Shown here: positions 4,426 through 58,615 of the stretch, in pieces
How positions within the stretch are numbered: the first letter of the stretch is position 1
Layout: each line of letters starts with the position of its first letter
The notes under the pieces: generated by a model
What the model saw: only the letters and a program-made list of their open reading frames with translations
Databases searched by the model: none
Told to the model about the DNA's origin: nothing
Translations under genes and position numbers: made by a program
Assembly: GCA_045543955.1 (NCBI GenBank)
Contig: JAZPYB010000023.1
Span: 65,499-129,498, forward strand
Reading direction: 5' to 3'
From: Eubacteriales bacterium
Lineage (GTDB): Bacteria > Bacillota > Clostridia > Oscillospirales > CAG-272
DNA length: 64,000 nt

Positions 4426-4495
4426 AATTTAATTGACATTTTATAGATACCTTGCTATAATGTTAATATATAAAATATATTAATTGGGGGCATCT

Positions 4496-5179
4496 ATGGA
4501 CGGTTTTATTGATTTTTTAAATTCATATGTTGTGGACCTTAGCTGGGTGTCAATTATTATAAGAATAATCCTTGCTGTTATAGTCGGTGGACTTATAGGT
4601 AGTGAAAGAGGAAGAAGCGGACGTCCGGCTGGACTTCGTACTCACATTCTTGTGTGTCTCGGCTCTGCAATGACTGCGCTTATCAGCGTTTATATTGCAG
4701 AAACAGGCAACTTTGACGATATAGCAAGAATTCCTGCACAGGTTATTTCAGGTATAGGCTTCCTCGGTGCCGGAATGATTATTGTTAAGAAAAATAGTGT
4801 AATTACAGGTCTTACTACTGCCGCCGGTATGTGGGCGACTGCAACAATCGGTATTGCAATCGGCTACGGATTTTACCTTGGTGCGCTTGTGGCAATGGGC
4901 GCATTGATTTTCACAGCCTCAGTTTTGACAATACTAGAGCGCAAAAGCAAAAAATCCGTGCATATATATGCAGAAATTTCAAAGGCAGAGGAATCTGGCA
5001 GAATCACTGAGGAGATAAGGGAAGTGCTCGGGCACGAGGCACACGTTGAGGTTTCCTCAGCAAGAAGTGGTGTGGTTGGCAACCTTGGATTATATATCAC
5101 TACAAGCACACAAAGCGCAGAGAACACTCGCCAAGAAATAGAAAAGCTAGAGGGAATTTCATTTGCAATAAGAGAATAA
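4496..5179 (+). CDS. MgtC/SapB family membrane protein
   Basis: GGLIGSERGRSGRPAGLRTHILVCLGSA motif. ATG 4496 lies 5 nt after GGGGG. The track ORF begins at TTG 4484. Confidence 0.75.
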   Translation: MDGFIDFLNSYVVDLSWVSIIIRIILAVIVGGLIGSERGRSGRPAGLRTHILVCLGSAMTALISVYIAETGNFDDIARIPAQVISGIGFLGAGMIIVKKNSVITGLTTAAGMWATATIGIAIGYGFYLGALVAMGALIFTASVLTILERKSKKSVHIYAEISKAEESGRITEEIREVLGHEAHVEVSSARSGVVGNLGLYITTSTQSAENTRQEIEKLEGISFAIRE

Positions 5180-40975: not shown

Positions 40976-41013
40976 ATATATACTTATAATAATATGCGTT
41001 TAGGAGGGTGATT

Positions 41014-42762: not shown

Positions 42763-43779
42763 ATGAGCAAAAATGAAATGAAAAATAGAGTAGCAACAGC
42801 TGAGGAGCTTGAAAAGGTAAAGCTATTTAGCGAAAAGGTTGCAAAAATCAAGGACGAATTAAAAAAGGACGTCGTTGGCCAAAAGGAAATTATTGATAAC
42901 GTTATTATTGCAATAGTAGCAGGTGGTAACGTTCTTTTGGAGGGTGTTCCTGGCGTTGGTAAGACACGTTTGGTTCGTTCACTTGGTAGAGTTCTTTCTC
43001 TCCCATTCTCACGTATTCAATTTACACCTGACCTTATGCCATCAGACGTTACAGGTACAAACATAGTTGAAAAGGATGAAAACGGCAGACTCAATACATC
43101 CTTTAGAAAGGGACCAATCTTTGCAAACCTTGTTTTAGCAGATGAAATCAACCGTGCAACTCCGAAAACACAATCAGCTATGCTTGAGGTAATGCAGGAG
43201 CACAAGGTTACAGTTGGTAACGACGTACATAAAATTGCTGAACCATTCTTTGTTTTGGCAACAGAAAACCCAATAGAGCAGGACGGTACATACCCACTTC
43301 CAGAGGCGCAAATGGACCGTTTCGTGTTCAAGCTAATTGTTAATTTCCCATCAGATGAGGAGCTAGCTGATATCGTTAAGATGACTCAAATTACACTTGA
43401 CGAAACAGCAACTGCCGTAATTGATGGCGATGAAATTTTGGAAATGAGAAGACTCGCTTCGGGAGTTATCGTTTCTGAAGACGTTCTTATGTATGCAATC
43501 AGACTCGTTTCTGGCACTCACCCAGAGCTTGATAAGTCTTGCGCTAGCACAAAGAAGTATGTAAAATATGGTGCTTCTCCCCGTGCTGGACAAGCGCTCA
43601 TTACATGCGCTAAGGCTAAGGCTCTTATGGAAGGCAGATATAATGTTTCTTATGACGATATTAATGAGCTTGCATACCCTGTACTTCGCCACAGAATTAA
43701 GATTAACTTCACAGCTGTAAACGACAAGCTTGGAGTAGATGATGTAATCTCAATGATAATAAAGGAAACTAAAAAATGA
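42763..43779 (+). CDS. MoxR-family AAA+ ATPase
   Basis: Walker A GVPGVGKT, Walker B LADEINRA, QSAMLEVMQE, and R-finger region GASPRAGQAL. Confidence 0.9.
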   Translation: MSKNEMKNRVATAEELEKVKLFSEKVAKIKDELKKDVVGQKEIIDNVIIAIVAGGNVLLEGVPGVGKTRLVRSLGRVLSLPFSRIQFTPDLMPSDVTGTNIVEKDENGRLNTSFRKGPIFANLVLADEINRATPKTQSAMLEVMQEHKVTVGNDVHKIAEPFFVLATENPIEQDGTYPLPEAQMDRFVFKLIVNFPSDEELADIVKMTQITLDETATAVIDGDEILEMRRLASGVIVSEDVLMYAIRLVSGTHPELDKSCASTKKYVKYGASPRAGQALITCAKAKALMEGRYNVSYDDINELAYPVLRHRIKINFTAVNDKLGVDDVISMIIKETKK

Positions 43780-44660
43780 GTAAATTCACGATAAATGAGG
43801 AGCTTTTGAGCGAGATAGAATCGCTTCAAAGCATTCTCAAAAACAATGTAGCCGGTATGTTTGGCGGAAATCGTCAATCAAAAAGCTTCGGTTCATCGTG
43901 TGAATTTGCAGATTATAGAGACTATCTCCCAGGAGATGATATAAACAGAATTGACTGGAATGCATATGCAAGATTTGATAAGCTTTACCAAAAGCTATAT
44001 TATGACGAGAGACAGATGCATACCAGAATATATATTGATGCCAGCCGTTCAATGTGCCACGGCAGTGATGAAAAAGCATCTCAAGCATTAAAAATTGCTG
44101 CGTGCTTGGCATATCTTTCCGTTTGTGAGATGGAAAAGGTTTCAATATATGCAATTCACGGCAAGGAAATCGAAGAGGTTATATCGGGTATGGTAGGCAA
44201 GGAGTCCTATATTACCTCTATAAATAAGCTCAATGACATAGAATTTGTTGGGGACAGCCATATTAGCGAGGCGATAATCCCTACAAATGTCGGCAGGGGC
44301 GACGGCTTTTCCGTTATAATTTCCGACTTTTTAACTGATGAAAATTACGAGAGTGCGATTGACCACCTCGTATCAAAGAAAAAGGATGTTATTTGCGTTC
44401 AAATTTTATCTCAAGAGGAATTAAATCCTCAAATGAGAGGAAAGATGCATCTTTTCGACTCGGAAAATGCAGCAAAAACATACCGTAAAAAAATAGACCA
44501 TGATATTGTCAAGGCTTATAAAGAGGCTTTGAAGTTCGTAATTGAAAGAATCAAGGGATACTGCGAGGCAAGAGGCGCTCAATACCTTTTAGCCCCGGCT
44601 AGCGCTAGCATTTACGAGGTATTCTTTGTCAAGCTAGTGGATATGGAGGTGCTTAAATGA
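43776..44660 (+). CDS. DUF58 domain protein (VWA-like, MoxR partner)
   Basis: FADYRDYLPGDDINRIDWNAYAR motif. ATGA overlap with moxR. Confidence 0.85.
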   Translation: MSKFTINEELLSEIESLQSILKNNVAGMFGGNRQSKSFGSSCEFADYRDYLPGDDINRIDWNAYARFDKLYQKLYYDERQMHTRIYIDASRSMCHGSDEKASQALKIAACLAYLSVCEMEKVSIYAIHGKEIEEVISGMVGKESYITSINKLNDIEFVGDSHISEAIIPTNVGRGDGFSVIISDFLTDENYESAIDHLVSKKKDVICVQILSQEELNPQMRGKMHLFDSENAAKTYRKKIDHDIVKAYKEALKFVIERIKGYCEARGAQYLLAPASASIYEVFFVKLVDMEVLK

Positions 44661-46537
44661 GCTTAATGTACCCTCTTTGTCTTCTCGCTCTTTTAGGTGT
44701 TCCTGTCGTTATTATAATTTACATTTTAAAAAGACAATACACAGAGCAGACAGTAAATTCGACATACATTTGGGAGCTAAGTGAGAAGTTCTTAAAAAGA
44801 AGAAATCCACTCAGTGGACTTACTGGCATAATCTCCTTGATTTTGCAAATCTTAATGATTGTTTTAATCGTTTTTGCGTTAATCCACCCACTTATTACTT
44901 TAAAAGGCGAGGCAGAGGAATACTGCTTTGTTCTTGATGCCTCCGGCAGTATGAATATGGCTGAGGAAGAGGAGTCAAGATTTGAACGTGGCAAGGACAA
45001 AATCGAACAAATGATTTCCGACTCAACTAAGGGCAGTGAATACACTCTTATTTGTATGGCTGATGAGGCGACAACTGTTTATGAGCGCTTAAATGATAAG
45101 GACATAGCTATAAAGCTGCTTAACGAGCTTGAGCCCGCATATTCAGGCTCAGATCACTTAAAGGGCGCAAGTGTCGCGCAAGAGCTTTTCAATCAAAGAC
45201 CATCTACAAAGGTATATCTTGTTACAGATAAGGTCTTTGCAATGAAGCAAAATGTTCAAATAATTAATGTTGCCGGCAACGAAAACAATGTTGGCATTAC
45301 AGATTTAGATGTTGTTTGCGAGGACAAGCAGCTCAAAATCAACGGAATTATCAATTCCTACAAAAAGCAAAACACAGTTACTATTGATATATATGTTGAT
45401 GATTCTCCTAGACCTTCAGCAAGTGCGACAGTTATGTCCCCACCACAAAGTGGAATGCCGGCAGGCATGGACACGCCATTTTCAGTTCCGCCAATTCCTT
45501 GTGAGGTAGGCACATATTCAAGCGTAAGAGCCGTTATAAGAAATGCAGATGCATTGATAGAGGACAACGAGATTGTTGTATATAACCAAGAAAGCAACGA
45601 CCAAAACTCAATTATATTAGTTAGTGAAGCACCTCTTTTTCTTGAGGTCGCAATAGATGCACTTGGAGATTATAGTGTGACAAGCGTTACACCTAGTGAA
45701 TACGAGGCTACATATAAGGATAAATCATACGGCTTATATATTTTCGACTCCTATTCTCCTGCTTCAACCCCTGATAATGGTGCTGTTTGGATGCTCAATA
45801 CAAGCACCAGTGTTCCAAATTCTGGATTTAGCTATCGCTCAAGCATAGAGCTAAAGGAGCCTTTGCAAATAGAAAAAACTACTAGCACAGCAACTCTGGC
45901 AAGAAAGCTTCTTGAGGGAATGGAAACCAAAGATATTTATTTGATTAAATATCTAAGATATAGCACCTACACAAATTACACAACACTGTTTTCACTAAAT
46001 GGCACACCGCTTGTTATGGCGGGTGAAAACTCACACGGAAATCGCTCCGTTGTTTTCGCATTTGATATACACGACTCAAATATTGCAATGACGGGAGATT
46101 TTGTTAACCTTTTAGGAAACCTCCTTGGCTACTCATTCCCGAGCGTGCTTGATAAAACAAGCTATGTTGTTGGCGATGATGTTACAATAAACACAGTTGC
46201 AAATAGCGAAAGCATAAAGGTTACATCACCTCTTGGCAATGTAAAATATTTAAACACTGAGCAAACAATTAATGAGTTCTCACTTGACGAGGTCGGCACT
46301 TACATAGTTAATGTAAATGTAGGCGACACAGAGAGTGAATATAAGATTTTCTCCGAGCTTAACTTGGAGGAGCGCTCCCCTAACAGGATAGAGCAAAACT
46401 TCAGCATATACGGTACACCTAGCAATGACCGTATAGATGGAGAATATGACCCTATGATAATTATATTTATTCTCATAGCGGTAATTTTCGCGGCGGATTG
46501 GATGGTGTATATGTATGAAAAACGTCAGCTTCGATAA
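44657..46537 (+). CDS. BatA-like protein: N-terminal double-TM (BatA_N) plus VWA plus C-terminal TM anchor
   Basis: MSLMYPLCLLALLGVPVVIIIYILKR start and second TM. MIDAS VLDASGSMN (44935-49). Terminal TM MIIIFILIAVIFAADWMVY. Confidence 0.8.
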   Translation: MSLMYPLCLLALLGVPVVIIIYILKRQYTEQTVNSTYIWELSEKFLKRRNPLSGLTGIISLILQILMIVLIVFALIHPLITLKGEAEEYCFVLDASGSMNMAEEEESRFERGKDKIEQMISDSTKGSEYTLICMADEATTVYERLNDKDIAIKLLNELEPAYSGSDHLKGASVAQELFNQRPSTKVYLVTDKVFAMKQNVQIINVAGNENNVGITDLDVVCEDKQLKINGIINSYKKQNTVTIDIYVDDSPRPSASATVMSPPQSGMPAGMDTPFSVPPIPCEVGTYSSVRAVIRNADALIEDNEIVVYNQESNDQNSIILVSEAPLFLEVAIDALGDYSVTSVTPSEYEATYKDKSYGLYIFDSYSPASTPDNGAVWMLNTSTSVPNSGFSYRSSIELKEPLQIEKTTSTATLARKLLEGMETKDIYLIKYLRYSTYTNYTTLFSLNGTPLVMAGENSHGNRSVVFAFDIHDSNIAMTGDFVNLLGNLLGYSFPSVLDKTSYVVGDDVTINTVANSESIKVTSPLGNVKYLNTEQTINEFSLDEVGTYIVNVNVGDTESEYKIFSELNLEERSPNRIEQNFSIYGTPSNDRIDGEYDPMIIIFILIAVIFAADWMVYMYEKRQLR

Positions 46538-49241
46538 TCCGTACCTATTATTACTAGCAATACCGCTTTTGCTTCTTGTTTTAATCCCGTTTGTTATAGC
46601 GATTAGAAAGGAAAACAGGAGCAAATCAACTGTTGCATCATTAGTAATTCACATCACTATTGTTGTTCTGGTTACCCTTGCCGCAGCAGGGACTATGATA
46701 ACGACAATATTAACAGAAACAACCGTATACGTGGTAGCGGATGTTTCGTATTCGGGCGAGAGAAATCTTGACCTAATAGACGAATATATTGACGAGCTTG
46801 AAAAAGAGCTACCAAAGAACACAAAGCTAGGTGTTGTTTGCTTTGGCGAAAATGCAGAGATTCTTTATCGCCCAGGCGAGGAAGCCAAAAGTGTAAGAGA
46901 ATCAACTGTTGTTAATTCAAGCACCGATATAGTAAATGCAATTAGATATACAAAAAATTTGTTTCCCGATGATTCTATAAAGAAAATGATTCTTATTTCG
47001 GATGGTAAGGACACCGATGCAAATGCAAGAGGCAAGCTTGTCTCCGAGGTTGAGTCACTAAAGCAAAGCAAGATTACACTTGATGCAATCTTCCTTGACA
47101 ACAATCTAAAGGAAACAGAAAAGGAAACTCAAATTTCCGACCTTGAAAGAGCAGAGACTGTATATCTTGATAGCAAGGTTACAGCAAAGGCGTTGATACA
47201 AGCAAACTATGACGGGGCAGCAAAAATAACCCTTTCAGTTAAAGAGCCTGATAGCAACACATATGTTGAAATGCCATATATTATGCAGGACCTCTATCAC
47301 GGCTATAATATGGTTGAGCTGCCACTCAGCACTCAAAAGGTTGGAATTTATGACTACAAGCTAGAAATTGAAAGCACAAATGATATTTGGGAGCAAAACA
47401 ACGTTTATACCTTTGCTCAAGAGGTAAAGGATGAGCTCAAGGTGATGCTTTTGACAGGCTTGCAGGAGGATGTTGATGCAGTAAACAAGCTCTATGAGGG
47501 CAAGGCAACTGTTGACGCATTCCTAATAAATAAAAAGGTACAGGACGAAATTCCTTACACAGTAGAGGAGCTTTGTCAGTACGACGAGTTTATCATTTCC
47601 AATATTGATATAAGAAGCGTTACAAATATCACATCATTTTTAAATGCTGTTGAAATTGTTGTTTCTCAATTTGGCAAAACCTTAACAACAATGGGCAATT
47701 TGGAAATTCAAAACAAGGATGACGGCACACTTGGTGCACTGGGAGAGATGCTTCCTATTAACTATGGAAATGCAAATGCCGACGCAAAGCTATATGTTTT
47801 AGTGCTCGACACCTCTCACAGTATGAATCAAGCCTCAAAGCTTCCTACAATGAAGGAGGCGGCAAAGTCTCTTCTTTCCTTGCTAAGCGATACCGATACA
47901 GTTGCACTTGTTACATTCTCTGGCGATGTTGAAACACGTCAGCCACCTGTTCAGCTTGGCACAAAGAGACAAGAAATAATCGATACAATCGATGGTCTTA
48001 AGCCATCACAAGGTACATTCCTTGGTACAGCCTTAAAGAGTGCTTACGATATTTCTAAGCTGTTTGAGGCTGGCGAAAAGCAGGTTATGCTTATTTCCGA
48101 CGGTAAGACTAATGATTACGATATCGATGGAGAGCTTGTGGCTACCCAAATGGGAGCAGAGGAGATAGTTGCATCTACAATAAATATGCTCAACACAAAT
48201 GACGAAAAGGCGACAAAGCTTCTTTCAAACATTGCTAAAAAGTCAGGCGGCAACTACTATCCGGTTTCCGACCTTTCAAAAATTGACGAGCTTATTTTTG
48301 CCGACATTGCTGATGATATGACCGAAGCAATAGTTGAGGCTGAAACAAGCGTAAACATAAAGCAAATCAAGGATATGCTTTTGGTTGGCGATGACGACTC
48401 ATATGAAAACGACATCACCTTTATTGAAAACATTTTCGGCTTTGTACAAACGGGCAACAAGCTCGATGCGACAGTTGTTTTAACAGCTGATTACGTAAAG
48501 GACGAGGATGTTGTTGTAGAGGTTCCTTTGTATTCATATCGTGACTATGGTAATGGAAGAGTAGCAACCTTCACAAGTAGCCTAGGCAACAGCTGGCTTG
48601 ATGGCTGGAGTGACGAGTTTAAAGACCTACTCTTTGGCAATATGTTAATTCAAAACAGACCCGAAGAGAAGATAGTGAATCCATTTGAAATTGAAATAGA
48701 TTATGATGGATTAAATTCAAGGCTTTTAATAACTCCCGCCGCTTTACGCACAGATGCGCAGGTTTTAGTAAAAATCACCTCCTTTGATGGCAAGATTTTG
48801 ACAATTACCCCAGCAAGTCAAGAGGGCGAAACCGCAAGCCCATATTCACAAATGTATTTCGATACTCAAAAATATTATTTCGACGTACAAACCAAGGAGG
48901 TTGGTAGATACGATATAGAGATAATATACAATTACAACCAAAGCAAAGACGGCGCATATTCAAATTCAATAACCACAAATGCTTTCTTTGACGTATCATA
49001 TTCGCCTGAATATAATGCATATGAAACATTCTCGGCATCCAGTCTTCACGCGTTTGTTGACGGGGAGGTTGTTGAGGGCTCAGGACTCAAGATTACAAAT
49101 GATGAAGATGAGCTAGCTACATACGAATATCGCTTCACAATACCATTCTTAATAATTGCGATGGTTCTATTCCTAATAGATATCGCGATAAGAGTGCTTA
49201 AATTCAACAAAAAAGCCAAGACAAAGGGGGAGAAAATATGA
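46515..49241 (+). CDS. BatB-like protein: BatA_N double-TM plus two VWA domains plus C-terminal TM anchor
   Basis: F.NPYLLLLAIPLLLLVLIP start. DVSYS (about 46740) and DTSHS (47809-23) MIDAS motifs, each followed by an ..LISDGK.. motif. Terminal TM. 23-nt overlap with the upstream gene. Confidence 0.8.
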   Translation: MKNVSFDNPYLLLLAIPLLLLVLIPFVIAIRKENRSKSTVASLVIHITIVVLVTLAAAGTMITTILTETTVYVVADVSYSGERNLDLIDEYIDELEKELPKNTKLGVVCFGENAEILYRPGEEAKSVRESTVVNSSTDIVNAIRYTKNLFPDDSIKKMILISDGKDTDANARGKLVSEVESLKQSKITLDAIFLDNNLKETEKETQISDLERAETVYLDSKVTAKALIQANYDGAAKITLSVKEPDSNTYVEMPYIMQDLYHGYNMVELPLSTQKVGIYDYKLEIESTNDIWEQNNVYTFAQEVKDELKVMLLTGLQEDVDAVNKLYEGKATVDAFLINKKVQDEIPYTVEELCQYDEFIISNIDIRSVTNITSFLNAVEIVVSQFGKTLTTMGNLEIQNKDDGTLGALGEMLPINYGNANADAKLYVLVLDTSHSMNQASKLPTMKEAAKSLLSLLSDTDTVALVTFSGDVETRQPPVQLGTKRQEIIDTIDGLKPSQGTFLGTALKSAYDISKLFEAGEKQVMLISDGKTNDYDIDGELVATQMGAEEIVASTINMLNTNDEKATKLLSNIAKKSGGNYYPVSDLSKIDELIFADIADDMTEAIVEAETSVNIKQIKDMLLVGDDDSYENDITFIENIFGFVQTGNKLDATVVLTADYVKDEDVVVEVPLYSYRDYGNGRVATFTSSLGNSWLDGWSDEFKDLLFGNMLIQNRPEEKIVNPFEIEIDYDGLNSRLLITPAALRTDAQVLVKITSFDGKILTITPASQEGETASPYSQMYFDTQKYYFDVQTKEVGRYDIEIIYNYNQSKDGAYSNSITTNAFFDVSYSPEYNAYETFSASSLHAFVDGEVVEGSGLKITNDEDELATYEYRFTIPFLIIAMVLFLIDIAIRVLKFNKKAKTKGEKI

Positions 49242-50953
49242 GAATAGCTAATAAGCTTATAGCACTGATTTTAGCGCTAACATTCATTCTTTCCCTCTGT
49301 GCTTGTGGCACCTTCAAGCCGGCAATCGACTCTGATAGTGACTCAAATACAGACACAGAGCCTGGTATAATCGGCACAGATACCTCAACAGAAACAGAGA
49401 CAGATTCGGACATAGGCGCAGATTTTGATATTGAAAATAGTGGCTACACCGAGGATGATTTTACTGTTGCTTTAAGATATAATGGAGAAAAGTATATTCC
49501 AGACGAGGAAATCCTTGTTTATTGGAAAAACGCTAACACCTTAGAGACCTGTCAAATAAACAAAAAGGGCTTTGCAGGTACATCTAAGCTGGATGGCGAC
49601 TATCGTGTTACTCTTTCTCACGTTCCCGAGGGAATGGCATATAATCCAAATGTACACGAGGCAACAAACGATAATAAGCACATTATAATTGACATTTATG
49701 ACTTGGTTGTTACTAAGAAAGTAGGCACAGACCAAAGAAACCCTGAAGCCTACCCAAACCAAGGAAGAAAGCTTAATAGAATTGCGGTATACAGTGTTAC
49801 CTTAAATAGTAAATCTCAAACCATTTATTTCGACTTCACACCAAGAGACGAGGGCGATTATAAAATCGAGAGCTGGATGGACACAACAGCCGAGCAATAT
49901 AATCCATATTGCGAGGCTTATACAGGCTCAATTGTATATAAGCGCCACGATGGAACAGTTGACGGTGGTGGAGCTGAGGGGCTTTATACTAAAAATTTCT
50001 TGAATGGTATAACCGTTAGTAAGGATATGATAGGCAACGTGCTAACCTTTGGCATTCACGTTGATTCCAAAAACGCAGACAACTATCCTGTTGATGTTGT
50101 TTTTGCGATAACTCTTAATGACGGCTTTGAGCCACCAAAGAAGTCAGAATACACAATGTACGCACCAGAGGATCCTGATGCCTATTTAGATGGAATGCGC
50201 TACTATGGTAGTGAATATGAAATTAAATATCCTGAAAAAGAAATGCCTGGCAGAAATACATATTACTTTAAGGAAGAGAACTTCCAGCTATGGACAAAGG
50301 AATCCGGCGGAGACGGTTATTACCACGTTTATGATATGGAAAAATATAGCCGAGATAATTATCCAAATGGATACGAGGCTGGCTATCCCGAGGGCTATGG
50401 ACCTATTCTGTATGCAAACATAAGCGTGCCTTGTCGCTTCCTTGATAGACCCTTTACTTTTTTTGAAATAGAGAGTAAGCCATTATCAATTAAGGTTAGC
50501 GAGGATTTGAAAATCAACTATAAGCACTTTATAGAGGGCTATGATGCGTTGGCGGAAAGAATTTATGACCCGCCAATGGGTGGCTATACATCAAGCTATT
50601 ATTGCTTCCGTGATTGCCCGTGTCATCCAACAGACCAAATTTATAACTATGCTTGTCCCGAGGGATGTACAAACTGCCTACCTGACTGTCGTCAGGTTGA
50701 CAACGATTTGATTGTAGGCTATAGAGATGATGGAAGCCCGATATACTTTGCTGGCTTGTCTCACTACGTAAATAACGATGGTGGAGTTGCAGTAACGGAG
50801 GAGTTAAAAACCTTCTTATATAGACTAAGCGTAGCACAAAGATACTTTGCCGATGGAGATGGCTGGGTTGAAACACATCCTAAACTTAATATCGACTCCT
50901 CGGACGAAGCACAATGGCTTTTTGCGTGTTATTATTACGAGCTAGTAAAATAA
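49238..50953 (+). CDS. lipoprotein with a C-terminal 8-Cys cluster, hypothetical
   Basis: MRIANKLIALILALTFILSLCACG lipobox and a D/S/T linker. YYCFRDCPCHPTDQIYNYACPEGCTNCLPDCRQ. ATGA overlap with the upstream gene. Confidence 0.6.
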   Translation: MRIANKLIALILALTFILSLCACGTFKPAIDSDSDSNTDTEPGIIGTDTSTETETDSDIGADFDIENSGYTEDDFTVALRYNGEKYIPDEEILVYWKNANTLETCQINKKGFAGTSKLDGDYRVTLSHVPEGMAYNPNVHEATNDNKHIIIDIYDLVVTKKVGTDQRNPEAYPNQGRKLNRIAVYSVTLNSKSQTIYFDFTPRDEGDYKIESWMDTTAEQYNPYCEAYTGSIVYKRHDGTVDGGGAEGLYTKNFLNGITVSKDMIGNVLTFGIHVDSKNADNYPVDVVFAITLNDGFEPPKKSEYTMYAPEDPDAYLDGMRYYGSEYEIKYPEKEMPGRNTYYFKEENFQLWTKESGGDGYYHVYDMEKYSRDNYPNGYEAGYPEGYGPILYANISVPCRFLDRPFTFFEIESKPLSIKVSEDLKINYKHFIEGYDALAERIYDPPMGGYTSSYYCFRDCPCHPTDQIYNYACPEGCTNCLPDCRQVDNDLIVGYRDDGSPIYFAGLSHYVNNDGGVAVTEELKTFLYRLSVAQRYFADGDGWVETHPKLNIDSSDEAQWLFACYYYELVK

Positions 50954-50978
50954 TTTGCAAAAATATTAGAAAATAATA

Positions 50979-51007
50979 TACAAAAATGTATTATTTTATG
51001 TTATAAT
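50979..51007 (+). promoter_or_regulatory. possible internal promoter (extended -10) for the giant lipoprotein gene
   Basis: TGtTATAAT at 50999-51007. The -35 (tacaaa) is weak. The context is AT-rich, so this could be fortuitous. Confidence 0.3.
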
Positions 51008-51104
51008 ATAATTTACCTAAAATATACTTCAAATTTCTTTTATTCATTTTGGTTTCAATTAGATTTTTGAAATATATAAATTATTTTTAAGGAGGTCCTT
51101 TCAA

Positions 51105-54100
51105 ATGAAAAGGAAACTAGCACTTATTGTATGTGTTATAGCTCTCTTTGCAATGATCTTTACACTCGCATCATGCGGTGGAGACGGCGACAAAGATCAT
51201 ACACATACATATGCGCAAGCTTGGAGCTCCAATAATGCAGGACACTGGTACGCAGCTACCTGTGGATGCGAGGGAGAGGTTTCAAACTATGGCGCGCACG
51301 TCGATGCTAACAAGGACGGCAAGTGTGACACATGTGCTTTTGTAACATGTACTCATACATATGCCGAGGAATGGCAAAGCGACGAAACAAATCACTGGAA
51401 TAACCCAACCTGTGGTTGTAATGTTAAGGGTTCATTCGGCGCTCACGCTGATGCTAATAAGGACGGTAAATGTGATACATGCGCTTATGTAATGTGCGCT
51501 CACACATATGCTGACACTTATTCAAGCGATGCTACAAATCACTGGTTCGCAGCTAACTGCGGATGCCAAGTAGCAGGCAAGGGCACAGAAAAGCACATTG
51601 ACGAAGTACTTGACGGTATTTGCGACAAGTGTCAATACGTAATGTGCACACACACCGACCTAGTAGGTGGTGTAAATGGTGGTAAAAACGGTCTTTGCGA
51701 TGACTGTGGCTTTGTAATGTGCGAGCATGAATATGACACAGTATGGTCAAAGGACGAAACAAACCACTGGAAAGAGCTAAAATGTGGATGCGACGTTGAA
51801 AACGAAAGCGTAGCAGCTCACGTTGCTGTTGTAGGCGATGTTGATACAAAATGTGGCGATTGTGGTTACGTTATTTGCGAAAAACACACATTTGCATCCG
51901 AAAAGGTTGGCAATGACACACACCACTGGTACAAGGCTACATGTGGATGTGACACAATAAAGGGCAAGGAAGCTCATATTTGGGCTAACGAATGGTCTGA
52001 CGATGCATCTAATCACTGGCACGCAGTTACATGCGGATGTGATGCTCCAAACAAGGATACGGCAGCTCACATCGATGCAACAGGCGGAGAAAAGGGTGGC
52101 AAGGATGGTATATGCGACATCTGTTCACGTGAGATGCACAAGCACACCTATGAAGAGAAATATGAAAAGAATGGTTCACACCACTGGTATGTACCAACAT
52201 GTGGATGTGATTTAAGACTCTCACTTGAAGAGCACGAAGATGCAGACGGTGACTTTTTCTGTGATAAATGCTCAAAAGAGGTTCATGAGCATACTTATTC
52301 AGACACAAAGGTATGGGATGCTACACATCACTGGTATCCTTCAACCTGTGGCTGTGAAGATATGAAGAAGGCTTATGAAGAGCACACATGGGCAGAAGTA
52401 TGGTCAAGCGATGCAACAGGACACTGGTACGCAGCTGACTGTGGATGCGACGTTAAAAAGCTTGAGGCAAGCCACGTTGACCTAGAAGGCAACGAGCTTG
52501 ATGGAAAGCAAGATGGTAAGTGTGACGTTTGTGCATTTGTTGTTTGTGAGCACGTTGATGTAGAGGGTGGCGAAAACGGCGGCAAAAACGGCGTTTGCGA
52601 TAACTGTGGCGCAGTAAGCTGTCTACACAATTATTCTAACGAGATAACAAGCAATGCTACACATCACTGGTACGCAGCTATCTGTGGATGCGACGTTGTT
52701 AAAGACAAGGGCGAGCACTACACAACAGATGGAGCTTTGGAAAACGACGAAAATGACCACTGGTATGTTTGCGACGAGTGCGAAGAGGTATATGACAAAG
52801 TAGCACACGTTGACGTTGACCTAAACAAGGATGGCGTTTGTGATGATTGTGAGTATGTAATTTGTACACACACATTTGCAACTGAATTGTCAAAGAATGA
52901 GCTTTATCACTGGTACGACGCAACTTGTGGATGCTACGTTAACAAGGATCTTGCAGCGCACGATGCTGACGAATGTTCAGTTTGTGGATTTAAGTCCGAA
53001 ATTAAAGAAACAATCGATAACCTCGACAGCGAGGCTTCACTCAATACAAACTCCACAGAATCAATAAAGGACAAGGGAGCAATCTTATCATATGAGGATA
53101 ACTACACATATGAGGTTTTAGAGGATGGCAGACTTTCTCTTTACAATGATTGGGGAGAAATGCAATATATCTACATCACTCTTACAGATGGAGTTCCAAC
53201 CTTAATTGATGATGTTTATGGCAATGGCGAAAATGCTCTTGTTCCTGTTGACGGAGAAGATGGAGCATACTATTATACAAAGGGTATATACACCTATACT
53301 ATAAAAGTTGACGAAACAAGCAATGTTGTAATCATGGAAACAGCTTGGTCAGCGGAAAAATATAGCTATTACAAGGTTTACGACAACTACTTGGTTGTTA
53401 GCGATATTTATGGTAACGTTAAATACTATTCATATTACGGTGAAAACGGCGATCTTCTCTTCGTTATGACAGTAGATGAATATGGCAATGTAAACAGAGA
53501 AACCGATGCTTCAGAGCTTGGTGCAATTGCAAACTACAATGCAGTTTACTGGAACGTTCAAGCATCTAACCACGAGGACTTTATTAAGGGACTTTACAAT
53601 CTTGGCGTAAACGGCACATCTTTAGGAACAAGCTATGGCTTTGTTGGTGCTGAAAACGAGGGCGCTTACTCATTCTCATACCTCTACGTTGAGGAAGGTA
53701 TGTATTTCGTTATAGAAGTATCATTTACTGTTGATAGTGATGTAAACGGTATTTCATCTGCTAATGTATCAATTAAACAATACAACGAAAGCAGCATAAC
53801 CTTGAATCCTGCAGCTGATACATATGCAGTAGCAGAAGAAGCAGAGACTGACGGCTCTGAAACCTATGAAATCACTCAAACATTTGGTGATCCAATGGAT
53901 TCAACAAGCAATCCTAACCCATACCCAGCATCAGATTATATCGTAACTGATTTCACACTCACAGACGGAACAAATGTTTACGAGGACGGCGATGAAATCG
54001 AGCTTGATGCAATGGAAGAGCTAGTTCTCAACTTCAATGCTGAAATTGCTGACAAGATTGGCTTCAACATAGTTGATGCTACAGCAACAACAAGCGATGG

Positions 54101-56153
54101 CGCAGAGCTTTCTAGCTGGTCATCACAAGGTACTATTAATGTAAATACTTGGGCAGACCCACTCGCTATTGAATTTGTTGGTAAGCAAGCAGATACATTT
54201 ACAATAGTTATAGATGTTGAGGGAACAACCTTGACACTTACAGCAAAGGTTAACTACCTAACACCTGATTCAATCGACTCCGTTGTTTACGACGAGGATG
54301 ATGAAAAGGTTATAACAAGCGAATACACAATCTATAGAGGTCAAGCTCTTAAGATTACAGCTTCAGTTGCTGCAGGCTGCAACCCAGCATTCACAGCAAC
54401 ACTTCCACAAGGCGCAGCTGCTGCTCTTACAGACAATGAAGATGGCACATACACATTCACACCTGTAATGGCTGGCGAATTTGAAATTACATTAACATCA
54501 ACAGCTGCTGCCGGCGTTTCAACAGTTCTTACTGTTACCGTTGAAGAGCCACCGGCAATCAGTGATGTTCTTAACGGCACTCACACAGGCGATAATATGT
54601 ATTCAGGTCTTACTGTAGGCGCTACATTTACTCCAAGCGAGGAAGGTGCGGAGACTGGTACAGTAGTTGTTACTGTAAGTGGTGAAATGTTCAGCTATGC
54701 AACTTGGGAGTGGGAAATTATTGAATATTCCGCAACATATACATATGCATACAACGATGGCGCAATTGAGCTCACATATGTTGAGGGCGATGAGTTGGAG
54801 GTTGAACTTTTTGTTAATAACTACAAGGTTGTAGCAATTTATGAGTTCAATGAATACAAGCTTGTACAAGAAGAACAAGAGCCAGAAAATCCAGATGGAC
54901 CAGTTGTTGGCGGAGCTACAGAAAGCCCAATTACTGTAACAATGACAGGTGCTTATACATATTGCTATGAGTACACATTTACATTCGTAGCAGGCGATGC
55001 AGGCTATTACACATTTACAGTTCCTTCAGGCTTTGGTGTTATGAGCGAGGCGGATTATCAAAATTACGGCTCAGCATACGTTGACTTCCAAATGGACGAT
55101 GGTGGAACATTCACAATTCAACTTTCAGAGGGTGCGTCGTTTGCACTTCGCTTTGGTTCATTGGATGCTAAGGATTATGAGCTTTCATTCACATACTCAG
55201 CAACCGACCCAGAGGGTGGAAATGCTGGCGATACAACAACAGGTCTTGAGGGCACATATACAGCAGCAGATGACTGGGACAACTCATTCGATGTTGTTAT
55301 TACAGGTACAACAATCACATTTACACCTGCTGGTGCAACAGACCCAATTTCATACACATATCAATATGCAAATGGTGTAGCTACCTATTTCGATTCACTT
55401 GGTGTGCAAGTAACAATGGGAATGCAATTCTCACTCACTATTACTGATGGTGAAGTAACAGGTATGACATACAACGGAACTGGTTATACTCTTACAAATC
55501 AAGACTCTTCAAATGAAGATGACGACGACAACCAAGGCTCAGTAGAGGCTATCACAGGTGACGGCTCAGAAGAAAATCCATTTGTTATCGCAGGCGCAGG
55601 CTCAACAATGATTTCTGCTAATAAATTCATGCCTTTATTTGTAAAAGTAAATGCAGGAGTGACAGTTACTCTTCCAGCGGGTGCTCAATTCTATACTGAC
55701 CCAACAGATACAACAACAGCAGTTGGTGCAACAGTAACACCTGATATAGATACACTTTATTATGTATATGCAGATTCAATGGCTGGTTGCATGGGCAATC
55801 TTACAGCAACTGTAGGCGGTAATGATGGTGGCAATACAATTACTGGTAGCGGAACAGAGGGCGATCCATTTGTTCTTACAACAGCTGGTGATTATGTTTG
55901 TGAATTCCCTGGCGGATTTACACCTATTTGGTATGTATATACAGCAGAGGCTGATGGAAGCCTTACACTTTCATCAACATATGAAAACGCTTGGCTTGGT
56001 GTAGCAGAAGATGCTATGACTGCTAACAATACTCATAACGAGGGCGTTGGCTCAAAAACCATTTCCGTAACCGCAGGTGAAACATATTACATTATGGTTG
56101 GAGATTGGAATGAAGCAGCTATGGACGTTCCATTTACAATCACTATAGCATAA
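51105..56153 (+). CDS. giant (1682 aa) surface lipoprotein: N-terminal Cys/His-rich repeat array plus a T/G/E/Y-rich beta-type region
   Basis: AAGGAGG RBS and lipobox FTLASCG. Repeats described separately. Uninterrupted ORF. Confidence 0.75.
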   Translation: MKRKLALIVCVIALFAMIFTLASCGGDGDKDHTHTYAQAWSSNNAGHWYAATCGCEGEVSNYGAHVDANKDGKCDTCAFVTCTHTYAEEWQSDETNHWNNPTCGCNVKGSFGAHADANKDGKCDTCAYVMCAHTYADTYSSDATNHWFAANCGCQVAGKGTEKHIDEVLDGICDKCQYVMCTHTDLVGGVNGGKNGLCDDCGFVMCEHEYDTVWSKDETNHWKELKCGCDVENESVAAHVAVVGDVDTKCGDCGYVICEKHTFASEKVGNDTHHWYKATCGCDTIKGKEAHIWANEWSDDASNHWHAVTCGCDAPNKDTAAHIDATGGEKGGKDGICDICSREMHKHTYEEKYEKNGSHHWYVPTCGCDLRLSLEEHEDADGDFFCDKCSKEVHEHTYSDTKVWDATHHWYPSTCGCEDMKKAYEEHTWAEVWSSDATGHWYAADCGCDVKKLEASHVDLEGNELDGKQDGKCDVCAFVVCEHVDVEGGENGGKNGVCDNCGAVSCLHNYSNEITSNATHHWYAAICGCDVVKDKGEHYTTDGALENDENDHWYVCDECEEVYDKVAHVDVDLNKDGVCDDCEYVICTHTFATELSKNELYHWYDATCGCYVNKDLAAHDADECSVCGFKSEIKETIDNLDSEASLNTNSTESIKDKGAILSYEDNYTYEVLEDGRLSLYNDWGEMQYIYITLTDGVPTLIDDVYGNGENALVPVDGEDGAYYYTKGIYTYTIKVDETSNVVIMETAWSAEKYSYYKVYDNYLVVSDIYGNVKYYSYYGENGDLLFVMTVDEYGNVNRETDASELGAIANYNAVYWNVQASNHEDFIKGLYNLGVNGTSLGTSYGFVGAENEGAYSFSYLYVEEGMYFVIEVSFTVDSDVNGISSANVSIKQYNESSITLNPAADTYAVAEEAETDGSETYEITQTFGDPMDSTSNPNPYPASDYIVTDFTLTDGTNVYEDGDEIELDAMEELVLNFNAEIADKIGFNIVDATATTSDGAELSSWSSQGTINVNTWADPLAIEFVGKQADTFTIVIDVEGTTLTLTAKVNYLTPDSIDSVVYDEDDEKVITSEYTIYRGQALKITASVAAGCNPAFTATLPQGAAAALTDNEDGTYTFTPVMAGEFEITLTSTAAAGVSTVLTVTVEEPPAISDVLNGTHTGDNMYSGLTVGATFTPSEEGAETGTVVVTVSGEMFSYATWEWEIIEYSATYTYAYNDGAIELTYVEGDELEVELFVNNYKVVAIYEFNEYKLVQEEQEPENPDGPVVGGATESPITVTMTGAYTYCYEYTFTFVAGDAGYYTFTVPSGFGVMSEADYQNYGSAYVDFQMDDGGTFTIQLSEGASFALRFGSLDAKDYELSFTYSATDPEGGNAGDTTTGLEGTYTAADDWDNSFDVVITGTTITFTPAGATDPISYTYQYANGVATYFDSLGVQVTMGMQFSLTITDGEVTGMTYNGTGYTLTNQDSSNEDDDDNQGSVEAITGDGSEENPFVIAGAGSTMISANKFMPLFVKVNAGVTVTLPAGAQFYTDPTDTTTAVGATVTPDIDTLYYVYADSMAGCMGNLTATVGGNDGGNTITGSGTEGDPFVLTTAGDYVCEFPGGFTPIWYVYTAEADGSLTLSSTYENAWLGVAEDAMTANNTHNEGVGSKTISVTAGETYYIMVGDWNEAAMDVPFTITIA
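51198..53000 (+). repeat. intragenic array of about 11 diverged 30-80 aa Cys/His repeats
   Basis: 11 copies of H-x-[YFW]-x(9-10)-H-W-x4-C-G-C. 12 C-x-x-C pairs, mostly in a DG-x-C-D-x-C-x4-C context. Confidence 0.85.
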
Positions 56154-56174: not shown

Positions 56175-56210
56175 AAAAAGCACACCGAGGCAACTCGGTG
56201 TGTTTTTATT
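56175..56210 (+). terminator. rho-independent terminator ending the locus
   Basis: cacaccgag-gcaa-ctcggtgtg plus TTTTT. Confidence 0.75.
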
Positions 56211-56213
56211 TAT

Positions 56214-56242
56214 ATAATAAAAAGGCTCCCACTGGGAGCCTT
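56214..56242 (-). terminator. rho-independent terminator for the minus-strand two-component operon
   Basis: ggctccc-act-gggagcc with a T-run on the minus strand. Confidence 0.6.
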
Positions 56243-56246
56243 TAAT

Positions 56247-56354: not shown

Positions 56355-57770
56355 CTATTGTTTCTCGACCTTAAACTCAAACCAGAAGGTAGAGCCTTTG
56401 CCAACCTCACTCGAAACTCCAAAGCGCGAGCCGTGGAGAAGTAAGATATTCTTTACAATGGATAGACCCAAGCCCGTGCCCAAAATAGCGCGCTTGTGGA
56501 CTTTATCTACCTTGTAATATCTATCCCAAATAAGTGGCAACTTTTCCTCGCTAATTCCCTCGCCGGAGTCGATAACAGAGATTCTTGCAACATCGCCCGT
56601 AACCTCTTGGCGAACAATTACAGTTTTGTCCTCGCCTGTATAGTTAATGGCATTGTTTATAAGGTTATAAACAACCTGCAAAAGCCTTGTTTCATCAGCG
56701 CTTACAAAAACCTCACCATCGTGCTCAAAGAATATTTTATACTCCTTGTGTTCGAGTAGCTTTTCGTATCTTTTAACTGTGTCTTTTACAACTTGGGTAA
56801 GAGAAACAATCTTCAAATCCATAATTTGAGTGCCGGATTGTAGCTTAGAAACAGTAAGTAAGTCATTTACCAAGGAATTAAGGCGAGCAGTTTCGTCAAT
56901 GATAATTTGCATATTTTCTGACGTTCTTTCGTCAGGAAAATCACGCATAACCTCGCTATAACCAGAAATCATAGTAAGTGGGGTTCTTAAATCGTGCGAA
57001 ATGTTCGCTATAAGTTCTTTTTGCGTATCATTCAGCTTCTTTAATTCAGCAGTTGCAGAGTTGAGGGAAATTGCAAGCTCACGAACCTCGCTTGGTCCTT
57101 TTTCCTCAAATTCAACATCATAGTCATAAAGAGTTAGGCTTTTTGCCTTTTTGCTCATACTAGCGATAGGAGAAGAAATACTTCTGGAGAGTGCATATGA
57201 TATAATTACAGAAACAATAATAGCAAGAACTGAAAGAAATGCAAGAGTATTACGAATAACTAAAACCAAGCTAAGAGGTGGAGCTGTGCTTGTGTTTAAA
57301 ACCACCATATACCAAACATCGGCTCCGTCTTGCGAATTATAAACAAGTGTAACACGCACTAATTCATTAGCAGAGGTTGATGAATAAGTATGGTTGTCTT
57401 CCTCACAAGCAGAGTTGAACCAAGAGCACAAAATCTCCTCGTTTCCAACGCTTTGAGTAATAGCTGACTCAGGGTCGGCGCAAACAAGGGAGATGTTGTC
57501 TTGACTTAAAAATTTGAAAACCGCAATAGGTATATCGTATTCAGTTGATTTTTTTGAGACGTATTCTTCTATATTATTAACATCAAAGCTTTCAGAAACA
57601 TCATTTGATGCCTTTTCGATGGTGTTTTCCTTAACGGTTTGGAAAATCAATTTTATAAATCCCATTTGGAAAATCCAAACAAGCAAAATTAGCACCAAGG
57701 TTAAAGCCATCATTGAAATAAAAATTTGATAATTTATAGAGAGCTTTGTTTTTTTATTTTTCTTGCTCAT
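56355..57770 (-). CDS. sensor histidine kinase (HisKA + HATPase_c)
   Basis: H-box SHDLRTPLT, N-box NLINNAINYT, G-boxes DSGEGI and GTGLGLSIV. Two N-terminal TM segments. Confidence 0.85.
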   Translation of the reverse strand: MSKKNKKTKLSINYQIFISMMALTLVLILLVWIFQMGFIKLIFQTVKENTIEKASNDVSESFDVNNIEEYVSKKSTEYDIPIAVFKFLSQDNISLVCADPESAITQSVGNEEILCSWFNSACEEDNHTYSSTSANELVRVTLVYNSQDGADVWYMVVLNTSTAPPLSLVLVIRNTLAFLSVLAIIVSVIISYALSRSISSPIASMSKKAKSLTLYDYDVEFEEKGPSEVRELAISLNSATAELKKLNDTQKELIANISHDLRTPLTMISGYSEVMRDFPDERTSENMQIIIDETARLNSLVNDLLTVSKLQSGTQIMDLKIVSLTQVVKDTVKRYEKLLEHKEYKIFFEHDGEVFVSADETRLLQVVYNLINNAINYTGEDKTVIVRQEVTGDVARISVIDSGEGISEEKLPLIWDRYYKVDKVHKRAILGTGLGLSIVKNILLLHGSRFGVSSEVGKGSTFWFEFKVEKQ

Positions 57771-58459
57771 TTTTCCTCAAAGCGGTAGCCCATACCACGA
57801 ATAGTAACAATAAAGCTGCTATATTTACCCAGGCTCTTTCTTAGAATCTTGATGTGAGTATCAAGGGTTCTGTCATCCCCAAAGAAATCATAGCCCCAAA
57901 CATCAGAGAGAAGCTTGTCACGTGAAAGAGCTATATTTTTATTCTTTAACATATAGAAAAATAGTTCATATTCCTTTGGTGACATATCAATTCTTTCGCC
58001 GTCGATATAAACAATACGTGCGGTTAAATCGGCAACCAAGCCACCATTTGCTAGGGAGATAATTTCGTTTTTATTTTCTTCTGTCTTTTGAGGCTTAGCC
58101 TTGGAGCGCTTCATAATAGCCTCAACACGGAGCATAAGCTCCTTAGGAGAGAAGGGCTTGACAACATAGTCGTCAATGCCAATTTCAAAGCCGTTAATTT
58201 TATCATATTCCTCGCCACGGGCAGAGAGCATAATGATAGGAACATCACTAGTTTCACGAATTTTGCGGCTAGCAGTAAAGCCATCAAGCTCTGGCATCAT
58301 AATGTCCATAATTATAATATCAAATTCGCCATGAGAAAACTTGTTAACCGCATCCATACCATCAACAGCCTCAGTTACTGAAAAACCGTCAAATTCAGCG
58401 TATTTGCGGATTAGCTTTCTTATCATTTCCTCATCGTCAACAATTAAAATGTTATACAT
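57767..58459 (-). CDS. OmpR-family response regulator
   Basis: ILIVDDEE...DIIIMDIMMPELDG receiver plus a winged-helix C-terminus (RGMGYRF). 4-nt overlap with the kinase gene. Confidence 0.85.
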   Translation of the reverse strand: MYNILIVDDEEMIRKLIRKYAEFDGFSVTEAVDGMDAVNKFSHGEFDIIIMDIMMPELDGFTASRKIRETSDVPIIMLSARGEEYDKINGFEIGIDDYVVKPFSPKELMLRVEAIMKRSKAKPQKTEENKNEIISLANGGLVADLTARIVYIDGERIDMSPKEYELFFYMLKNKNIALSRDKLLSDVWGYDFFGDDRTLDTHIKILRKSLGKYSSFIVTIRGMGYRFEEK

Positions 58460-58615
58460 TTTTATCACCTCTATTTTATTTTAGCATACAAAATATAAAA
58501 TTTCAATAATAATATAAGTCCACTAAAACCAAAGACGCACCTCCAAAAAGGAATGGTGCGTCTTTGGTATTTTGAAGGAGAGTAGATTGAGTCGATTTTA
58601 GGGAGATTCAAAATC

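Follow-up and report, generated by a model that had tools for sequence, protein, structure and literature searches.

A long array of Cys/His-rich modules in a clostridial lipoprotein: a probable zinc-stapled stalk of variable length

The window analysed here, a 64,000-nucleotide stretch of contig JAZPYB010000023.1 from a Eubacteriales bacterium, encodes a lipoprotein of 1682 amino acids (51105..56153 on the plus strand, stop codon included, from the open reading frame list and its translation) that carries, after its lipid anchor, a tandem array built from two Cys- and His-rich half-modules, here termed A and B. We consider it fairly likely that this array is a zinc-stapled, possibly calcium-binding stalk of variable length carrying Ig-like domains. 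An initial annotation of the sequence had suggested serial metal sites in the array and this remains the best reading: the candidate ligands are invariant in 51 diverse ABAB segments from the family, Cys and His are swapped only for one another, and half A is linked by sequence to the predicted zinc-binding domains (ZBDs) of the IgA protease (IgAse, also called IgAP) of Thomasclavelia ramosa. All coordinates below are positions in the window and residue numbers, unless another protein is named, are those of the 1682-residue lipoprotein.

Regular expressions, segmentation and a chance control together define the array as residues 32-627 (51198..52985, plus strand). It is made up of 11 A modules, 10 B modules, one A/B hybrid and one truncated terminal B, and holds 54 Cys and 43 His; protein-wide, 56 of the 60 Cys and 43 of the 46 His fall within residues 1-640. 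The pattern HW-x4-CGC occurs 11 times and [DN]G-x-CD-x-C eight times in exact form, with variants besides, and there are 12 CxxC pairs, none of which is a CxxCH. The initial annotation, which had listed 11 HW-x4-CGC copies plus a degenerate DHWYVCDEC (residues 551-559), 12 CxxC, no CxxCH and, by hand count, about 54 Cys, was accurate on all these points. It had also placed the start of the array correctly, whilst the end lies at the truncated B (residue 627, nt 52985) and not near residue 632 (nt 53000). As a chance control, residues 25-640 were shuffled 20,000 times, giving on average 0.01 A motifs and 0.008 B motifs, with a maximum of one of each.

Every half-module opens with His, and cutting the sequence at these module-initial residues gives the order A B A B A B B A B A A B A B A A B B A hybrid B A, then the truncated B (all on the plus strand). 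The dyad H32-x-H34 at the start runs into A module 1 (residues 34-64; 51198..51296), and then come a B module with a full DxNxDG-x-CDxC loop (65-83, HVDANKDGKCDTCAFVTCT; 51297..51353), A (84-113; 51354..51443), B (114-132; 51444..51500) and A again (133-163; 51501..51593). Two B modules in a row (164-182 and 183-207; 51594..51725) create a B-B junction, after which an A module (208-238; 51726..51818) and a degenerate B with CGDC (239-260; 51819..51884) lead to two consecutive A modules (261-290 and 291-321; 51885..52067), with an A-A junction at which position -2 is neither Cys nor His. In the next B module (322-346; 52068..52142) the loop is long and Gly-rich and His345 stands in place of the third Cys; an A module follows (347-376; 52143..52232), and in the B module after it (377-395; 52233..52289) the third Cys is replaced by His394. 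The remainder comprises a pair of A modules (396-426 and 427-456; 52290..52472), a pair of B modules (457-482 and 483-507; 52473..52625), A (508-537; 52626..52715), the A/B hybrid (538-567, H538 ... DH552WYVC556DEC559; 52716..52805), B (568-588; 52806..52868), the last A (589-618; 52869..52958) and the truncated terminal B (619-627, HDADECSVC; 52959..52985), which keeps its His and CxxC and has lost the [C/H]-x-H dyad.

This segmentation recovers the solitary A units at residues 261-290 and 396-426 and the solitary B units at 183-207 and 483-507 that had been noticed initially. The accompanying claim that A and B are separable units also holds good, as A-A and B-B junctions exist and one family member has an array of B alone. 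The latter is found at locus L028 (CAYRJG010000027.1, uncultured Ruminococcus sp.), where a pure half-B tandem array on the minus strand (about nt 4159-4707 of the locus) has a 24-residue period, C-D-E-H-V-D-A-D-G-D-G-F-C-D-N-C-G-E-P-V-E-P-D-D, in about 11 copies; the open reading frame is at least 1867 residues long, with the B array upstream of a beta domain and a transmembrane helix. Half B alone can therefore be regarded as a complete Cys3His-plus-DxDxDG unit.

The copies in the window protein are well diverged: A units are on average 41% identical in amino acid and 55% in nucleotide sequence (maximum 63% at the nucleotide level), and it is this divergence that makes the array invisible to Tandem Repeats Finder, which detected no array in the DNA. 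To judge from their sequences, the units are old copies. Leu, Ile, Phe and Met together make up 7.3% of the array, Cys 8.8% and His 7.0%, and Asp and Gly are also plentiful. With so few core-forming residues, the fold needs cross-links other than a hydrophobic core.

When the whole protein was searched against Pfam-A and NCBIfam, no model, TSP_3 included, matched the array at E ≤ 1. The statement in the initial annotation that no family could be recognised thus stands for Pfam, NCBIfam and the folds of the PDB, though not for the literature, where ZBD1 and ZBD2 of the IgA protease provide a precedent from 2025. Searching for homologues of the array brought up 596 proteins (E ≤ 1e-3), almost every one from a metagenome-assembled genome (MAG) of Clostridia, and hidden Markov models made from the A and B copies of the window protein found both modules, in mixed orders, in essentially all of the 120 listed homologues. 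A family-wide profile, made from the 51 ABAB segments and run against 1.84 billion cluster representatives (50% identity clusters), matched at least 5001 proteins at E ≤ 1e-3, of which 1791 reached E ≤ 1e-10 and 401 reached E ≤ 1e-30. At the DNA level, the pattern H-x-D-x-[ND]-x-D-G-x-C-D-x-C was found in at least 120 stretches of the GTDB species genomes, against an estimated four or so expected by chance, and the matches listed come almost entirely from gut and rumen Clostridia (Oscillospiraceae, Acutalibacteraceae, Ruminococcaceae, Lachnospiraceae and Christensenellales-like MAGs). The domains with which the modules are partnered include pectate lyase, D-Ala-D-Ala carboxypeptidase S11, CBM74, leucine-rich repeats (LRR), filamin-type Ig, SLH, InlB B-repeats and M64 protease, and some family proteins (P0002-P0009, 600-870 residues) consist almost wholly of repeats.

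The His and Cys positions on which the initial annotation turned are invariant across this family. In 205 A units H1 and H14 are invariant, C20 is present in 97% and position 22 is occupied by His (61%) or Cys (36%); C12 and C15 never vary in B units, where position 20 holds Cys (80%) or His (20%). The positions invariant in the 51 ABAB segments are H4, H17, C23, H35, D37, C44, C47, H54, H67, W68, C73, H84, C93 and C96, whilst outside the ligands and a few aromatic residues the surface positions are poorly conserved. At A22 and B20 Cys alternates with His only, which argues for metal ligands rather than disulfide partners.

The same alternation bears on the possibility that the modules are metal-free, disulfide-knotted mini-domains, like EGF or Cys-knot repeats, as the initial annotation had also allowed. 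The protein is extracellular and its array rich in Cys, as such a reading would have it, but we regard it as very improbable: the number of Cys per A+B unit is odd or variable (five in most units of the window protein, three or four where His substitutes), the four His per A+B unit are as invariant as the Cys, and the organism is an anaerobe of the gut. The IgA protease showed no disulfides, and a reducing agent improved its behaviour (PMC12237041).

To examine the fold, we used AlphaFold2 (AF2) with a 51-row alignment to model residues 31-136 (ABAB). The mean pLDDT was 93.5 and the pTM 0.71. The model has three short strands in every A module and only isolated bridge residues in the B stretches; Foldseek found nothing similar at E ≤ 0.001 (best E 4.3 in the PDB and 0.69 in BFVD). 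H1, which comes before strand 1, shares one end of the up-down-up sheet of half A with C20/C22, which follow strand 2; H14, where strand 2 starts, and H31, which follows strand 3, are at the other. A separate metal site within each half-module is unlikely for this reason. Support for another arrangement comes from the register of arrays across the family. A [H/C]-x-H dyad precedes array-initial or isolated A modules, those with no B before them, in 172 of 180 cases; 130 of 135 family arrays end in a CxxC with no [C/H]-x-H after it; and at A-A junctions position -2 is never Cys or His (8/8). The predicted topology, the array register and the bookkeeping of ligands described below all point to sites that probably bridge neighbouring modules.

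Under the partition that we propose, one type of site would consist of [C/H]-2, H1, C20 and [C/H]22, and the other of H14, the H1 of the next module and the CxxC of that module; at A-A junctions the set would be H14, H1, C20 and C22, and at B-B junctions [C/H]20, His and CxxC. Applied to the window protein, this rule gives 23 non-overlapping four-ligand sets, 15 of them Cys2His2 and eight Cys3His, which account for every one of the 54 mature Cys and for 38 of 43 His. The five spare His each stand next to a ligand His or one residue away from it, in HHW or HWH. A partition with a self-contained site per half-module (H1, H14, C20 and C22 in A; H1, C12, C15 and C20 in B) was tried and rejected: H32, the conserved His at the start, goes unused and the terminal B is left with three ligands, and in the A site H14 and C20/C22 would be at opposite ends of the sheet.

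The absence of any Cys4 set under the proposed partition is one of the points that make redox or electron-transfer sites (Fe, Fe-S or Cu; Rieske-like or rubredoxin-like), a further suggestion of the initial annotation, scarcely credible. Ligand sets of Cys and His speak for such sites, as do weak sub-threshold matches of homologues to PknG_rubred. Against them, CxxCH, the motif for haem attachment, is lacking among the 12 CxxC; the spacing is unlike the CxH...CxxH of Rieske proteins, the dyads here being [C/H]xH plus CG[C/H], or two His plus CxxC; no redox genes lie nearby; and the signal peptide is of Sec type without a twin-arginine motif. A lipoprotein exported by Sec acquires its cofactor outside the cell, which suits Zn2+ or Ca2+ and not Fe-S or haem, and the nature of the signal therefore excludes the export of a pre-assembled cluster.

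Half B has a second feature of interest, a loop of the form D-x-[DN]-x-D-G-x-C-D, in which loop positions 1, 3, 5 and 9 are Asp or Asn and position 6 is Gly; DxDxDG is the pattern of EF-hand-type loops. A full DxDxDG-like motif is present in three B units of the window protein (at residues 67, 116 and 572) and partial versions in the others, and in the ABAB alignment D37 of the loop is invariant and D41 and D45 are conserved in at least 90%. The Pfam model EF-hand_1 stayed below its cut-off of 25.4 bits over the loop positions of two homologues (22.7 and 19.3 bits) and gave no match on the window protein. Given the latter result, and since several loops are degenerate or extended, we go no further than to hypothesise from the sequence pattern that the B loops may bind Ca2+.

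The nearest precedent for the array comes from the T. ramosa IgA protease (UniProt Q9AES2). When a profile of 68 A units was compared with 177,635 PDB sequences the sole match was 9qa6_A, a chain of this enzyme (E 5e-6), whilst phmmer, run on PDB sequences with the undivided array as its query, gave no match. The two copies matched in 9qa6_A lie at chain positions 906-939 and 1075-1103, equivalent to 935-968 and 1104-1132 in UniProt numbering (the construct starts at A31), and both coincide with subdomain II of domains described in 2025, ZBD1 (H935-H968) and ZBD2 (G1101-H1132) (bounds from PMC12237041). The description of the ZBDs is from AlphaFold3 models only: they are predicted to be elongated, at about 110 Å for 129 residues, with three-stranded sheets, and to hold putative structural zinc sites of 2His+2Cys or 3Cys+1His at the subdomain interfaces; the cryo-electron microscopy map of the protease covers S32-N876, with the ZBDs unresolved, and subdomain I is said by the authors to bear a distant resemblance to the TFIIS zinc ribbon (PMC12237041). 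In a second study the same domains were named CTD2 and CTD4. There, small-angle X-ray scattering of isolated CTD2 showed a fully extended rod, in agreement with the AF2 model, and the authors proposed structural zinc in an "uncharacterized periscope domain fold", leaving room for extra functions (PMC12415215).

By its sequence, half A is a relative of this recently described, predicted subdomain II of ZBD/CTD2-4. The two share the signature H-T-x3-[EW]W-x-S-D-x-T-N-H-W-H...C-x-C...A-H, three-stranded sheets, 2His+2Cys and 3Cys+1His sites that would bridge sheets (predicted in IgAse and proposed here), a position adjacent to the anchor and the lack of a structural homologue. They differ in arrangement. 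IgAse has 3+2 subdomains, with an Ig-like domain between, near a C-terminal sortase anchor, whereas the window protein has 23 modules in one uninterrupted N-terminal array after its lipid anchor; moreover, subdomains I and III of IgAse are of another module type, H-x-H...ATCTxxG...CxxC. In the literature searched we found no description of half B or of long A/B arrays. The array is a distinct, much larger variant of the IgAse module, with an additional, undescribed half B. It is not categorically new, since a related module, with a role of the same kind proposed for it, was described in the 2025 papers on ZBD/CTD2-4.

A homology search with IgAse fragments returned only an unrelated protein of 92 residues. 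In a human gut metagenome, locus L142 (OLVY01003971.1) encodes an IgAse-like M64 protease (HEFGHGLLGLGDEY) in which ZBD1 is followed by what appear from the sequence to be two repeats of peptidoglycan-binding type, in place of the sortase anchor of T. ramosa IgAse, and locus L145 (OPDF01002280.1), also from a human gut metagenome, encodes another surface protein with the same ZBD1 and a half A-half B pair. In both, half A is accompanied by the third module type, H-x-H...ATCTxxG...CxxC; their ZBD1 is composed of this module, a half-A-like module and a third related module.

The array can also be compared with better known systems. The IgAP authors drew an analogy with periscope proteins (PMC12415215). 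In such proteins, of which the G5-E repeat proteins SasG and Aap are examples, an elongated array of single-sheet modules with little hydrophobic core stands between anchor and functional head, as would be the case here, and module number varies between relatives. In the array this variation is seen between species-level orthologues, and neither its fold nor its putative Cys/His metal sites have any relation to G5/E. The pattern of the B loop is that of EF-hands and thrombospondin type-3 (TSP3) repeats, and Cys flank the loop as in TSP3, but half B is no helix-loop-helix, it has a CxxC knuckle inside the loop, and some loops are degenerate or extended by Gly-rich sequence. With zinc ribbons and rubredoxin knuckles (Zn_Ribbon_TF, PknG_rubred, DUF1922) the modules have in common CxxC, four Cys/His ligands per site (as proposed here) and weak sub-threshold Pfam matches in homologues. 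Those domains are mostly intracellular, single and self-contained, whereas the array modules are extracellular and tandem, with sites that are apparently shared, and Foldseek gave no match.

Where the arrays stand, and how they vary, can be seen across the family. In some 185-200 of 233 family proteins the array directly follows the lipobox. Others have it near an anchor of a different kind: after an N-terminal transmembrane anchor (S11 peptidases), close before SLH (P0161), before the transmembrane helix in L028 and before the sortase motif in IgAse. Fourteen orthologues of the window protein (P0121-P0134) have between five and 17 ligand tokens, against its 23, in arrays of about 100 to about 400 residues, against about 600. 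The difference between the window protein and P0121 includes whole-module insertions or deletions of 108, 55, 32 and 24 residues, and the two are 61% identical in the array and 87% in the C-terminal part, so that the stalk evolves faster than the head. If the array were as extended as ZBD1 of IgAse (about 0.85 Å per residue), its 596 residues would by extrapolation span about 50 nm.

The part presumed to be displayed, the C-terminal 1042 residues (641-1682; 53025..56150, plus strand), nearly lacks Cys and His. AF2 models it as a string of Ig-like/beta-sandwich domains (pLDDT 75.8), for which Foldseek returns Bacteroides ovatus SGBP-B, filamin, the S-layer proteins EA1, Sap and SbsC and phage tail proteins (E 1e-9 to 1e-4). 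Pfam gave nothing significant in this part and no catalytic domain was found in it.

In the model that we infer from these results, which extends to zinc as the metal, the partition of its ligands, calcium binding, the shape and length of the rod and its function as a stalk, half A (about 30 residues) would be a three-stranded antiparallel sheet with almost no hydrophobic core and half B (about 20-25 residues) a CxxC knuckle with an Asp-rich, DxDxDG-like loop. Each zinc ion would be held by four Cys/His ligands from two neighbouring modules, either the [C/H]-x-H at the start of A together with the C-G-[C/H] after its second strand, or the His of HW together with the first His and the CxxC of the next module. 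Zinc would thus staple bead to bead, at 23 sites in the window protein, giving a stiff, extended rod that rises from the lipid anchor and displays a cargo of about 1040 residues of Ig-like/beta-sandwich domains through and beyond the cell wall. The length of the rod would change between orthologues by gain and loss of whole modules.

Rather than a stalk, the modules might be adhesive or ligand-binding repeats, for host glycans, minerals or cells, with metals required only for folding. The IgAse authors leave room for such extra functions (PMC12415215), the array itself could be the working part in P0002-P0009, which are almost all repeats, and the array diverges faster than the C-terminal part, as seen in the comparison with P0121. 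Nevertheless, we consider this unlikely, because the modules are joined to many unrelated cargos, nearly always in an anchor-proximal position, and because of the poor conservation of surface positions beyond the ligands and a few aromatics. An adhesive role would in any case be compatible with the stalk model.

A zinc store or scavenger at the cell surface, for uptake or detoxification, is a different proposition. Pneumococcal Pht lipoproteins, the obvious parallel, are surface proteins with several Zn-binding motifs, and a lipoprotein with about 23 potential Zn sites could be thought to resemble them. We find this quite improbable: full Cys2His2 or Cys3His sites are typical of tight structural sites and not of exchangeable ones, no uptake gene of ZnuA/AdcA type is present in the roughly 12 kb to each side, and the modules are appended to functionally unrelated enzymes.

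A number of points weigh against the stalk model, or at least limit it. The link to IgAse is modest, at 15-19 bits per copy and mostly over the first two strands. Half B lacks a counterpart in IgAse, and a profile of B units gave chance-level matches only when run against PDB sequences. Zinc in the IgAse ZBDs, the nearest precedent, is itself predicted from models. The ligand partition is drawn from topology, array register and bookkeeping, and the statistic for A-A junctions comes from a small sample of eight cases. Correlations between Cys/His swaps fail to discriminate between partitions, phi being 0.38-0.49 for all pairs, whether in the same proposed site or in different ones; since lineage effects dominate, they are uninformative between partition models. 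Canonical periscope repeats are near-identical in DNA and vary between strains, whilst the A units of the array share only about 55% of their nucleotides and 41% of their amino acids. Lastly, the modules could also bind ligands rather than act as a passive stalk only.

Extracellular tandem zinc-finger-like modules are unusual in bacteria, and the window protein, with 23 putative sites in 600 residues, is an extreme case; the short ABAB unit, confidently predicted as it is, makes a good target. The family, which occurs in many uncultured Clostridia of gut and rumen, has neither a Pfam or NCBIfam model nor an experimental structure, and a family model would annotate the stalks of thousands of hypothetical surface proteins, as well as reaching the ancillary domains of a therapeutically studied IgA protease. 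A bolder proposal would unite A, B and the ATCT-type module of IgAse in a large, unrecognised superfamily of extracellular bacterial zinc-finger beads, forming metal-dependent stalks of variable length on thousands of surface proteins of gut Clostridia; luminal Zn2+/Ca2+ would alter how stiff or extended the stalks are, and in the present orthologue group the stalked protein would also be a dedicated partner of a MoxR-VWA (Bat-like) envelope system. We offer this as speculation that is unlikely to hold in full.

The last element of that proposal concerns the genes upstream. A Bat-like cluster, identified from Pfam and synteny, lies at 42763..50953 on the plus strand, co-directional with the lipoprotein gene. 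Pfam identifies MoxR (AAA_3; 42763-43779), DUF58 (43776-44660), BatA plus VWA (44657-46537) and a 908-residue double-VWA protein, VWA2 (46515-49241), and these are followed by a 571-residue lipoprotein (49238-50953) with an LSLCAC lipobox, an acidic linker and a Cys-rich C-terminus but no Pfam match. A 583-residue protein with two predicted transmembrane segments (its residues 97-116 and 206-227) and no Pfam match opens the cluster (41008-42759, plus strand); it has long charged stretches and a Gly run and is kept at L001 and L002. The cluster genes share a strand and have overlapping stop and start codons. Orthologues at L001 and L002 keep the whole upstream cluster, and L001-L003 keep the downstream genes for a histidine kinase, a response regulator, HtrA and pheST, the contig of L003 ending just upstream of the gene. 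Much of this conservation is plain synteny.

Beyond these orthologues, the trio of VWA2, 571-residue lipoprotein and repeat lipoprotein recurs in the same order and orientation in seven of the 120 listed pattern loci, in other genera (L046, L068, L084, L087, L094, L110 and L124); VWA2 is only 33-39% identical in these, and in its C-terminal part the repeat protein shows weak similarity or none. The other 113 of the 120 listed repeat loci, and P0004, have no MoxR/VWA genes within 8 kb, and the MoxR/VWA link therefore belongs to the lineage of the lipoprotein and not to the repeat. The association noted in the initial annotation is thus real for the orthologue group and for the seven loci and fails for the remainder, whilst nothing points to metal-cofactor maturation, to which it had linked the MoxR family. 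Two questions previously merged can in this way be told apart: the repeat as a general stalk module, and the MoxR/VWA neighbourhood as a trait of one orthologue group.

That the lipoprotein is a client or component of a MoxR-DUF58-BatA-VWA machine, for metal loading or surface assembly, would fit the co-directional cluster with no terminator before the gene, the recurrence of the trio in different genera and synteny that persists even where orthologues are as little as about 33% identical in their C-terminal parts. In addition to the many repeat loci that lack these genes, however, the lipoprotein gene is set off by a 151-bp spacer with its own extended -10 element, and MoxR and DUF58 are proteins of the cytoplasm whilst folding of the array takes place outside the cell, with no biochemical link known between them. 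We judge a client role decidedly unlikely. The resemblance to Bat-type operons (Bacteroides aerotolerance) lies in the composition of the upstream genes and is one of context, not of the repeat, and most repeat proteins, thousands of them, do not stand beside such operons; we estimate that some 6% of loci do. No described Bat operon is known to end with a Cys/His-repeat lipoprotein.

The start of the lipoprotein gene itself is well marked. A ribosome-binding site, AAGGAGG, is read at 51089-51095 (plus strand), and the signal peptide (51105..51176, plus strand) carries a lipobox, MKRKLALIVCVIALFAMIFTLAS-C24, without a twin-arginine motif; the N-terminus, MKRK...FTLASC, fits the lipobox pattern [LVI][ASTG][GAS]C as MKRKLALIVCVIALFAMIFT-LAS-C24, both by eye and by regular expression. 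A lipoprotein-type start of this kind is common to nearly all members of the repeat family. The spacer before the gene (50954-51104, 151 bp) is AT-rich and contains a perfect extended -10 element, TGTTATAAT (50999..51007, plus strand), a possible promoter. A search for terminators between 50953 and 51105 found none. On this sequence evidence, the gene may have its own promoter in addition to read-through from the Bat-like genes.

Downstream, two adjacent GC-rich hairpins with T runs on both strands (56176..56243) read as bidirectional terminators that close the lipoprotein gene; they stand between it and the convergent kinase gene. At 56355-59800 on the minus strand are genes for a histidine kinase (HAMP-HisKA-HATPase), an OmpR-type response regulator and an HtrA-like serine protease with PDZ, convergent to the lipoprotein gene and syntenic with it in L001-L003. 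This set of genes resembles the CssRS-HtrA secretion-stress module of Bacillus. On the other side, directly upstream of the Bat-like cluster, an alpha-L-fucosidase gene (GH29, Pfam E 1e-94) occupies 39580-40875 on the plus strand and hints at a lifestyle of foraging on host or plant glycans.

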